From: a virus
Reading direction: 5' to 3' (one strand)
Virus genome (UHGV): UHGV-0316333
DNA: 10,171 bases
Positions 823-1,886 of this stretch are shown piece by piece. The position numbers and the translations under genes are program-made. The notes below the pieces were generated by a model. It worked only from the letters and a program-made list of their open reading frames with translations. It did not search any database and had not been told where the DNA came from. Every line of letters begins with the position of its first letter. The stretch's first letter is position 1.

Positions 823-863
823 GCCACAGCACGTTCTTGCATACAACGTGCCTGCGGTTTTTG
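823..863. repeat. Copy A of a ~40-bp hairpin-containing direct repeat (stem GCACGTT / AACGTGC, 9-nt loop CTTGCATAC, then GGTTTTT)
   Basis: ccacagcacgttcttgcatacaacgtgcctgcggttttt matches 1846..1886 (ccgcagcacgatcttgcatacgacgtgctacggtttcattt) at roughly 34 of 40 positions in the same orientation, with the loop sequence conserved. Confidence 0.5.
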
Positions 864-1049
864 AGACCGGTCCGATCATCAAACGAAACATAAAATTAAT
901 TCACATTATGAGGAAAAGTATCTTTTTTGTACTATGTAAATTCAAAGACTTAGCCTCATTTCCCCGATGGTTTTCTCAACACTACTGGTTGTGAGCCCTT
1001 GCAATGTTCATTAATATACGTCTCACAAATAATTCATAGATATTGCAAA

Positions 1050-1823
1050 ATGGATATTACTGAGTTTCCTTCTGGAGTAATTGAACACCTTGGCTGGTAT
1101 GTATACCGATTGATTGATCCGAGGGACGGAAGCACCTTCTATGTAGGGAAAGGCAAAGGTAACCGCGTATTTGCCCATATGCGCGGTGAAGTGGCAGCGA
1201 CTGATGATGACGAGTTACTGAGCAACAAGCTAAAGCAAATTAGAGAAATAAGGTTAGCAGGACTTGAGGTTATCCATGTCATCCATCGACACGGAATGAC
1301 TGATGAAAAGACGGCGTACGAAGTCGAAGCAGCACTTATTGATGCCTACCCTGGGTTAACGAATATCATGAATGGTGCTGGCAGCAATGAATTCGGCGCC
1401 GCGCATGTCAAAGAGTTGATAGCAACATATCAACCCGAAACCATAACATTTCATCATAAAGCATTAATGATTTCCGTTAACAGAAGTGCAAAGGATTCAG
1501 AGCTTTATGATGCGGTTCGATTTAGCTGGCGCATTAATGCCTCTCGCGCCAGCCAAGCAGAAGTCATTCTTGCTACTGTAAGGGGGATCGTTCGAGGGGT
1601 TTTCATTGCTGATAAATGGCTCAAATCAACACGTGAAAATTTCCCTACGATGAAATACTGGGACGAAGATCCTGACTTTGAGGCAACACAAAGTTCTCGC
1701 TATGGTTTTGAAGGTCGAGAAGCCCCACCTGAAATAGCTAATCTTTATCTTGGAAAAAAAATACCAGATGAATTAAGAAAAAAAGGAGCTATGTCCCCGG
1801 TCCGTTACTCACCTAATTTTTGA
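1050..1823 (+). CDS. GIY-YIG nuclease-domain protein with an unrecognised C-terminal domain (cargo gene at the mcrA/mom-equivalent position)
   Basis: ORF-track frame 999..1823; I prefer the ATG at 1050 (MDITEFPSG...) over the TTG at 999, though neither has a strong Shine-Dalgarno. Numbering from the 999 start, the motif reads G32-W-Y-V-Y36, then 11 residues, then Y48-V-G50-K-G, then R56 and H60, then E108/E110 and N122/N125 ([21 protein letters not shown]). This is the GIY-X10-11-YIG ... R ... H ... E ... N arrangement of UvrC and I-TevI type catalytic domains. GC content is visibly lower than the tail genes. Confidence 0.6.
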
Positions 1824-1845
1824 GTCTTTAAGTGATAAGCATAAA

Positions 1846-1886
1846 CCGCAGCACGATCTTGCATACGACGTGCTACGGTTTCATTT
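1846..1886. terminator. Putative bidirectional intrinsic terminator between the convergent GIY-YIG gene and pin (copy B of the direct repeat)
   Basis: Stem CCGCAGCACG (1846..1855) pairs with CGTGCTACGG (1869..1878) at 9 of 10 positions around a 13-nt loop. It is followed by TTTCATTT on the plus strand and, on the minus strand, by TTTATGCTT. It lies in the 57-bp gap between the stop codons at 1821..1823 (plus) and 1881..1883 (minus). Confidence 0.45.

Follow-up and report, generated by a model that had tools for sequence, protein, structure and literature searches.

The stretch of DNA analysed here (the window, 10,171 nucleotides of the virus genome UHGV-0316333) belongs to an Escherichia coli prophage, and its positions 1-2516 are 99.8% identical to NZ_CP178707.1. 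Mu-like baseplate and tail-fibre genes are encoded on the minus strand, together with an invertible tail-fibre segment and the invertase gene pinE. Convergent to pinE, on the plus strand, lies the anti-phage gene PD-T4-3, whose product is also known as CMoRE, and this gene is bracketed by two similar hairpins in the same orientation, which we call A and B and whose origin is the subject of this work. Related loci used for comparison are given as L with a number. The relevant features of the window are as follows:

665..762, plus strand: a conserved non-coding flank ("class 2"), in which homology with other genomes begins at 663-674 and which aligns with L003-L005, L009, and lambda
763..862, plus strand: the core element, consisting of GTAAAATC...CCAGCCA, hairpin A, and a T run, with boundaries that are sharp across many contexts
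824..857, plus strand: hairpin A, the terminal stem-loop of the ~100-nucleotide (nt) core element, in which one A.C pair is mismatched and one C bulges out, with TTTTT directly after it (858-862)
852..878, plus strand (as reverse complement): a remnant of serU, from the anticodon arm of tRNA-Ser(CGA), identical to K-12 serU at 24/27 positions and overlapping the 3' foot of hairpin A
1050..1823, plus strand: PD-T4-3/CMoRE, recognized by PADLOC (PD-T4-3, E = 3.5e-140), by PDB entry 9u75 (E = 1.3e-171), the solved structure of this protein, and by an N-terminal Pfam LEM-3_GIY-YIG domain
1846..1878, strand not assigned: hairpin B, a solo copy from which the 5' 60 nt of the element are missing, with one C.A mismatch, located between the convergent PD-T4-3 and pinE genes
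1881..2435, minus strand: pinE, a serine DNA invertase (Pfam Resolvase and HTH_7, RefSeq annotation) and the last gene of the late tail-fibre region

The stem-loop of copy A reads CCACAGCACGTTCTTGCATACAACGTGCCTGCGG (824-857) and runs into the five T residues, and that of copy B reads CCGCAGCACGATCTTGCATACGACGTGCTACGG (1846-1878), followed by TTTCATTTAT. In a gapless 28-mer (824-851 versus 1846-1873), 25 of the 28 positions are identical, and with one 1-nt indel allowed, the similarity extends over ~37 nt. This pair is the top direct 28-mer match in the window, and 20 base shuffles gave at most 22/28. A preliminary description, made from the letters of this DNA, had placed two equally oriented elements on either side of a GIY-YIG gene. 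Both positions and distances were borne out, as copy A lies 187 nt before the annotated start of that gene (1050) and copy B begins 22 nt past its stop codon (1821-1823). The stop codon of pinE (1881-1883, minus strand) follows only 3 nt past copy B, and the assignment of B to the site of a terminator between convergent genes, PD-T4-3 and pinE, likewise held. On the plus strand, the RNA centroid folds have -13.7 kcal/mol (A) and -17.4 kcal/mol (B), and on the minus strand both reach about -24 kcal/mol, i.e., the hairpins form on either strand. With 10-11 pairs, both stems have the stable, GC-rich form that is expected of a terminator. Copy A is followed by TTTTT, copy B by TTTCATTT on the plus strand and by TTTATGC on the minus strand. 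The comparison with more than 200 related loci settled that A and B are homologous and not alike by chance. The common origin of the hairpins, which the preliminary description had preferred over two unrelated terminators, was thereby upheld.

The product of the bracketed gene, CMoRE, is a single-gene type IV restriction enzyme that is specific for DNA with 5hmC and glucosyl-5hmC, and PD-T4-3/CMoRE is active when cloned with its native promoter (PMC12923530). A GIY-YIG homing endonuclease cassette was considered and rejected, as the product is this characterized modification-dependent restriction enzyme. A simple scan for consensus promoters called none for PD-T4-3. The GC content of the cassette is 0.34-0.44 versus 0.57 in the tail genes. 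PD-T4-3 orthologues from eight other enterobacterial genomes (of Yersinia, Providencia, Citrobacter, Buttiauxella, Raoultella, and Klebsiella) are associated with neither the hairpin nor the tRNA remnant. The hairpin is therefore the phage's and not the gene's, and the view that it is native to PD-T4-3 was abandoned on these grounds. The prophage itself lies between repeats of a tRNA 3' fragment (L001 10339-10385 and L131 24227-24273), of which one lies ~1.2 kb to the left of the window and the other just after the prophage integrase. Judged by the KplE1-type yfd gene content, we take this bounding fragment to be argW-like. As these attachment (att) repeats are outside the region, both hairpins and PD-T4-3 are located inside the prophage, between att and the end of the late genes.

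Hairpin A is the 3' end, about the last third, of an element that in prophage contigs has the layout GTAAAATC..GGCTGG AAATCATTCAATACTCGCACTAT ..CCAGCCA, followed by the hairpin. When IMG/VR was scanned with the 23-nt core pattern, more than 120 prophage contigs were returned. To the left of the element, there are at least five unrelated sequence classes, and to its right there are many sequences that include pinE, tfa, and the host gene ykgJ. The commonest left neighbour is a dinI-like gene, the stop codon of which lies ~8 nt before the element, and in many lambdoid prophages the element is the 3' untranslated region and terminator of that gene. Of 5426 complete E. coli genomes, 5243 contain the element, at a median of 2 and at most 8 places each. 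One of the E. coli copies is a diverged version in the core intergenic region between ecpE and ykgJ, and direct reading of the K-12 sequence gave 78.9% identity between this copy and window positions 763-852. The preliminary description had remarked that a common, genome-wide motif family would make the flanking positions of the hairpins coincidental; this objection applies in part, as the motif indeed belongs to a very common family.

The element also occurs in 200 records of phages, among them lambda, HK633, HK106, phi80, and numerous Stx phages. In HK633, a match of 97 nt with 91.8% identity spans the annotated attP misc_feature between int and stf. The annotation describes this attP as "similar to non-coding region between ykgJ and yagV", and a convergent tail-fibre gene adjoins it. 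Nakamura et al. (2021; PMC8112680) describe attB-in-PP_2, a 96-bp att sequence at the ends of lambda-like prophages with ~81% identity to ykgJ/ecpE, and report it as an integration site of other lambda-like phages. Our element appears to be the homologue of attB-in-PP_2, matched by length, position, and homology to ykgJ/ecpE. It shares with attB-in-PP_2 and the HK633 attP the length of ~96-100 nt, the ~79-81% similarity to ykgJ-ecpE, and the position at a prophage end beside accessory and tail-fibre genes. In contrast to these cases, the resident prophage does not have the element in the window as its att site, an assignment that we considered and rejected because this prophage is bounded by the tRNA 3'-fragment repeats elsewhere, and only copy A represents the full element. 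The proposed link to attachment sites thus survives in part: the hairpin belongs to a sequence that serves some lambdoid phages as att, but the pair of hairpins is not the cassette's own att. As a side aspect, the K-12 ecpE-ykgJ copy (L010 4183-4496) also contains what is left of the 3' end of a dinI-like gene in degenerate form, and the chromosomal "attB" in ecpE-ykgJ looks like an old prophage scar that may not be the source of the phage sequence. A sequence-string search of the literature for the element gave no result.

The conservation pattern is not restricted to the hairpin. The 60 nt before it are more conserved than their surroundings, and a stretch of 23 nt is nearly invariant. This, together with copies that lack the T run, with the position of the element in the circular phage, where it follows int in the same orientation and extends across the att site, and with the hairpin of the same family at the 3' end of the Shigella RNA CssrB (RF02799), could suggest that the hairpin is mainly a signal for RNA regulation or protein binding that is present twice, e.g., an RNase III or stability element past int and across attP, comparable to lambda sib, or the terminator of a small RNA, with any part in recombination being incidental. 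However, no Rfam family matches the element, and copy B reached only 32.4 bits with the CssrB model versus a gathering score of 76, as the 3' hairpin alone aligned and 129 model positions were missing. Also, there is no conserved promoter, the upstream sequences are of at least five unrelated classes, little covariation was found beyond the hairpin, the conserved 60 nt are missing from copy B and from other solo hairpins, and in this prophage genes on the opposite strand occupy 1.2 kb between att and the element. We therefore regard a mainly regulatory role as quite unlikely. A coding function of the element, for which an open frame in some members could have spoken, was rejected, as there are 1-nt indels, as the dinI-linked class has no start codon, and as changes in the stem are compensatory. 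The adjoining flank 665-762 shows high conservation among e14/KplE1-like prophages and in that part of the lambda b region which lies downstream of ea31; for this flank there was no open reading frame support, no Rfam match, and no covariation that would indicate a structure (RNAalifold).

Among 99 distinct sequences, 91% of the cells pair, and compensatory changes are found in 7 of 11 stem pairs; therefore, the stem is selected. These pairs were counted on a user-specified structure, and RNAalifold missed the hairpin in the 99-sequence alignment owing to 1-nt gaps. For a terminator loop, CTTGCATAC shows unusual conservation, and the stem is mostly followed by TTT, in some copies by CATATC, CTCTACC, or ATCC. 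When linkage to the flanks was followed column by column, the first ~30 nt of the element were found to track the upstream class, and the entire hairpin was statistically tied to the downstream late-operon context (pinE or tfa) but not to the upstream class, with the switch from the left to the right flank in the invariant middle of the element. This linkage in three zones indicates that the hairpin acts like a terminator at the end of the late operon and the middle of the element like an exchange point. In hairpins next to pinE, the linkage is split further, as the 3' arm goes with the pinE lineage and the 5' arm with the left neighbour. The same applies to hairpin B, whose 5' arm (CACGATC) stays with the cassette and whose 3' arm corresponds in type to that of empty sites belonging to the same downstream lineage.

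Such empty sites were read at base level in L003, L004, L005, L009, and ECOR29, where the order is variable cargo, element, one hairpin, TTTCATTTATC, and pinE. An alignment with related prophages that lack the gene had been proposed in the preliminary description, and the outcome was as it had anticipated: a single hairpin marks the empty site (single-copy alleles in L003, L004, L005, L009, and L296). A synthetic junction composed of the sequence left of A and that right of B was found in one piece in 128 genomes, the best match being ECOR29 with 96.7%. Many E. coli genomes have pinE with copy B only, and homology to these begins at 1844-1851; in others, segment 665-860 is joined straight to pinE. 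The element with copy A and PD-T4-3 is present in ~127 genomes, and PD-T4-3 with copy B and pinE in ~574 genomes.

Single-copy empty sites and direct repeats around a 1-kb unit with a single gene could also be explained by a target-site duplication, i.e., by a mobile GIY-YIG element that inserted into the hairpin and duplicated ~37 bp, or by a homing endonuclease gene that was copied in. We consider this highly improbable, as there are 3 mismatches in the 28 core positions and one indel between the repeats, as each repeat tracks its own outer flank across the loci, and as many loci have no copy A at all. Furthermore, neither terminal inverted repeats nor a transposase were found, and the product is a modification-dependent restriction enzyme and not a homing endonuclease.

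The cargo to the left of the element varies by strain and can be a retron Ec67, a RES-domain protein, a TrlF ATPase, or an AAA protein with an HNH protein; in the window, it is an HNH protein with a DUF6650-like protein. The region left of the element is a defence-gene hotspot. In L002 (3833-5668), L003, L004, and L005, the slot is occupied, depending on the strain, by retron Ec67, by a RES-domain NAD+ phosphorylase region, by a TrlF-type ATPase, or by an AAA ATPase with an HNH endonuclease. This last combination corresponds to the lambda ea59/ea31 pair, and the slot of K-12 e14 (L295) contains mcrA. The cargo of the window (1-387, minus strand, and L001 10710-11369) encodes the DUF6650-like protein, which is below the Pfam cut-off, and then an HNH_2 endonuclease. 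These two genes, located between the prophage att and the element, may be an uncharacterized two-gene defence module.

To define the joints of the cassette, we tabulated 87 PD-T4-3 cassettes from IMG/VR, 82 of them complete, together with E. coli loci. The right joint was uniform: the hairpin is located 22 nt past the stop codon in 82/82 complete cassettes, regardless of whether pinE, tfa, or another sequence follows. The left joint was of three classes, having either (a) the element with the full hairpin A, (b) a hairpin that is cut off from the loop onward, or (c) no hairpin and a serU fragment instead. In class (c), 66 nt of the 3' part of the tRNA-Ser gene serU, in reversed orientation, directly adjoin TTTTCGAGACCGGTCC, with which the cassette begins, and no gap separates the two. 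An example of this class is O157:H7 (L007), where copy A is replaced by an uninterrupted serU stretch of 66 nt (64/66 identical), and hundreds of genomes, O157:H7 included, have the serU fragment where copy A is otherwise found. Judged from its similarity, segment 852-878 of the window is a remnant of this tRNA-Ser gene that marks the left joint of the cassette. As the remnant of a tRNA gene cannot form de novo, class (c) is probably the ancestral arrangement, in which PD-T4-3 would once have been located at the serU-derived att end of a pinE-bearing prophage. In O157:H7, the serU fragment (L007 4957-5022) is embedded in a composite of an insertion sequence fragment, a gene for an AraC-type regulator, and a second tRNA 3' att fragment, and several integrative elements appear to be stacked beside PD-T4-3 in that genome.

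These joints bear on the idea that the cassette was integrated by site-specific recombination. According to this idea, a small circle of PD-T4-3 and one hairpin would have been inserted at the resident hairpin by crossover in the conserved loop, catalysed by an HK633-type integrase or another recombinase, and A and B would be hybrid attL- and attR-like sites. The single-copy empty sites, the function of a hairpin-containing element as a real attP or attB of some lambdoid phages, and the division of hairpin B into a 5' arm that goes with the cassette and a 3' arm that goes with pinE would all fit this idea. So would the fact that the 5' arm of B and the 3' arm of A pair perfectly, with one mismatch in each of the present hairpins, as well as the loop conservation unusual for a terminator and the same bracketing around lambda ea47 (see below). 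However, the reciprocal hybrid, composed of the 5' arm of A and the 3' arm of B, has two mismatches. Copy B is preceded by the PD-T4-3 3' flank GATAAGCATAAA and has only the terminal ~37 nt in common with the element; it does not hold the whole ~96-bp att block and thus lacks the 5' 60 nt of the element, including the invariant middle that would be the expected crossover core. No recombinase is encoded within the cassette or dedicated to it. Finally, in O157:H7-type loci the left end of the cassette continues into the 66 nt of serU, and a unit that starts at the foot of the hairpin fails there. Of the hallmarks of an att pair, the single-copy empty site is found, but not a crossover core in both repeats and not a cognate recombinase. 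An attL/attR-like footprint or a target duplication from cassette insertion, which the preliminary description had suggested, is contradicted by the restriction of B to the last ~37 nt, the lack of a recombinase, and the tRNA-Ser remnant at the left end, and we consider site-specific integration of the cassette to be an unlikely origin of the hairpin pair.

The two-hairpin layout is not restricted to PD-T4-3. In lambda (NC_001416, L294), the order is ea31, the element with a hairpin at 24,162-24,195, ea47, a solo hairpin at 22,573-22,606, and the convergent tfa, and lambda relatives without ea47 (L018, L021, and L102) have one hairpin beside tfa. As in the window, the element with its hairpin is followed by cargo that is transcribed toward the tail-fibre genes, by a solo hairpin of the same family, and by a convergent tail-fibre assembly gene. 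Lambda differs in the cargo, in the stronger divergence of its hairpins (~26/34), in the lack of a T run after the first hairpin, and in the lack of a tRNA remnant. A limited literature search (for the element string and for lambda ea47 terminators) found no mention of a hairpin duplication around cargo genes, lambda ea47 included. What was already known is the element (attB-in-PP_2, HK633 attP) and the gene (PD-T4-3/CMoRE), and the duplicated hairpin around the cargo is a modest extension of this knowledge.

Three further loci show variations of this architecture. L189 (349-542, 2210-2312, and onward) has three hairpins in a row, in the order full element, ImmA-like metallopeptidase and XRE regulator, dinI remnant with element and hairpin, PD-T4-3, hairpin, and pinE, and cargo modules thus appear to stack at the boundary. 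In L023 (2351-3062 and 3335-4978), a solo hairpin with a loop that matches the Rfam CssrB consensus closes a SAM-methyltransferase-like gene, and an ipaH-like effector gene is next; CssrB may be no more than the 3' end of a transcript terminated at the boundary hairpin. In L131 (24212-24615), a second prophage directly follows the first, with integrase, tRNA 3' att fragment, repeated GCACAAAG-type motifs, element with hairpin, and convergent tfa, and this boundary architecture is common to the two tandem prophages.

Taken together, we think it likely that A and B are orthologous copies of one widespread prophage-boundary stem-loop that came from two related prophage ends and were joined by recombination. 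This stem-loop normally closes a ~100-nt non-coding element between the att-proximal accessory genes for defence or virulence and the 3' end of the late tail-fibre operon, and elsewhere the boundary element is the attP of HK633-type phages and, as attB-in-PP_2, the integration site in some prophages. Copy A is the end of an intact element, copy B is the hairpin of a pinE end, and the 1-kb PD-T4-3/CMoRE module lies between them. The overall pattern is ordinary phage mosaicism, with a moron at a conserved module boundary.

We infer the following order of events. In the first state, PD-T4-3 would have been located at the end of a serU-integrating pinE prophage, between the tRNA-derived att fragment and the hairpin with pinE, an arrangement still present in O157:H7. 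Recombination with a relative that carried element, hairpin, and pinE may then have joined the 3' foot of the relative's hairpin (CTGCGG TTTT) to its look-alike in the tRNA (CTCCGG TTTT). This later left joint at the common CT(G/C)CGGTTTT could have been microhomology-mediated or due to the action of a serU-type integrase at a secondary site, CTGCGGTTTTT. A second crossover in hairpin B or to the right of it would have resulted in the two tandem hairpins around the gene, and each hairpin carries one mismatch, as expected of a hybrid. As far as function can be deduced from the letters, hairpin A with its TTTTT would stop rightward transcription from the accessory region ahead of the cassette promoter and thereby insulate the cassette in vivo, and hairpin B would end both convergent transcripts, those of PD-T4-3 and pinE; a hint of such termination is that Rfam CssrB ends at a related hairpin. 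The ~25-37 bp of common sequence could permit related prophages to swap or lose the cassette by recombination.

Several observations do not sit well with this explanation. A simple terminator scan called neither copy, with loops of 9-11 nt that exceed the 8-nt limit of the scan. The T run is absent in some contexts (CATATC, CTCTACC), and termination is therefore not the sole conserved role of the hairpin. The closest empty allele is only 96.7% identical, so that a recent gain or loss was not caught. The identity with the published 96-bp att sequence is a match of length, position, and ykgJ/ecpE homology. The joints are located exactly at the feet of the hairpins for three unrelated cargoes, namely PD-T4-3, lambda ea47, and the methyltransferase-like gene of L023. 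Such exact joints are not obviously predicted by random illegitimate recombination, nor are they fully explained by recombination with selection, and as the hairpin is part of a sequence that is used by integrases, an enzyme may have driven the event.

Because the joints recur exactly at the hairpin feet and the loop is unusually conserved, we keep a hairpin-directed mechanism as a minority view. It can be taken further by assuming that the boundary hairpin is a dedicated recombination module, recognized by an integrase or a structure-specific nuclease, through which lambdoid and e14-like prophages capture, swap, and lose single accessory genes in an integron-like manner. We regard this as speculative and improbable. 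The locus resembles integron cassettes in its single-gene units that are parted by imperfect hairpins of the same orientation and in the occurrence of empty and filled arrays. However, the hairpin is unlike attC, a tRNA fragment rather than a recombination core forms the left end of the cassette, and no IntI, attI, or Pc was found within 12 kb to the left or right of the locus.

The preferred view, that two related prophage ends were joined by recombination, can be compared with the morons of lambdoid phages, reportedly described by Juhala and colleagues in 2000 and by Hendrix. Like a moron, PD-T4-3 is located between neighbours that are adjacent in empty alleles, where element, hairpin, and pinE are contiguous; it has a lower GC content, its native upstream region drives expression (PMC12923530), and it benefits the lysogen. 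It differs from a moron in that the downstream terminator is the resident boundary hairpin and not PD-T4-3's own, and in the second copy upstream. In e14 of K-12, where pinE is followed by mcrA, the gene is unrelated (HNH McrA) and co-directional with pinE, and there is no hairpin of the same family.

On the other side of pinE, two inverted repeats of 20 nt with 95% complementarity (2497-2516, AAACGTTGGTTTGGGAGAAG, and 4085-4104, CTTCTCCCAAACCAAGGTTT) bracket tail-fibre and assembly genes. These repeats look like the crossover sites of an invertible host-range segment on which pinE acts.

The analysis gives a view at base resolution of how a characterized anti-phage gene, PD-T4-3/CMoRE, is placed in prophages and moves between them, riding on a boundary element that doubles as a phage attachment sequence. 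It identifies a slot beside the tail-fibre operon in which the defence genes vary with the strain (retron, RES, TrlF, and AAA with HNH, as well as mcrA in e14). The matching two-hairpin layout of lambda offers a tractable system for distinguishing whether these hairpins terminate transcription alone or also guide gene exchange. If the hairpin were indeed a recombination module, there would be an integron-like cassette system within phage genomes, at the end of the tail-fibre operon, that serves PD-T4-3, lambda ea47, and other genes.

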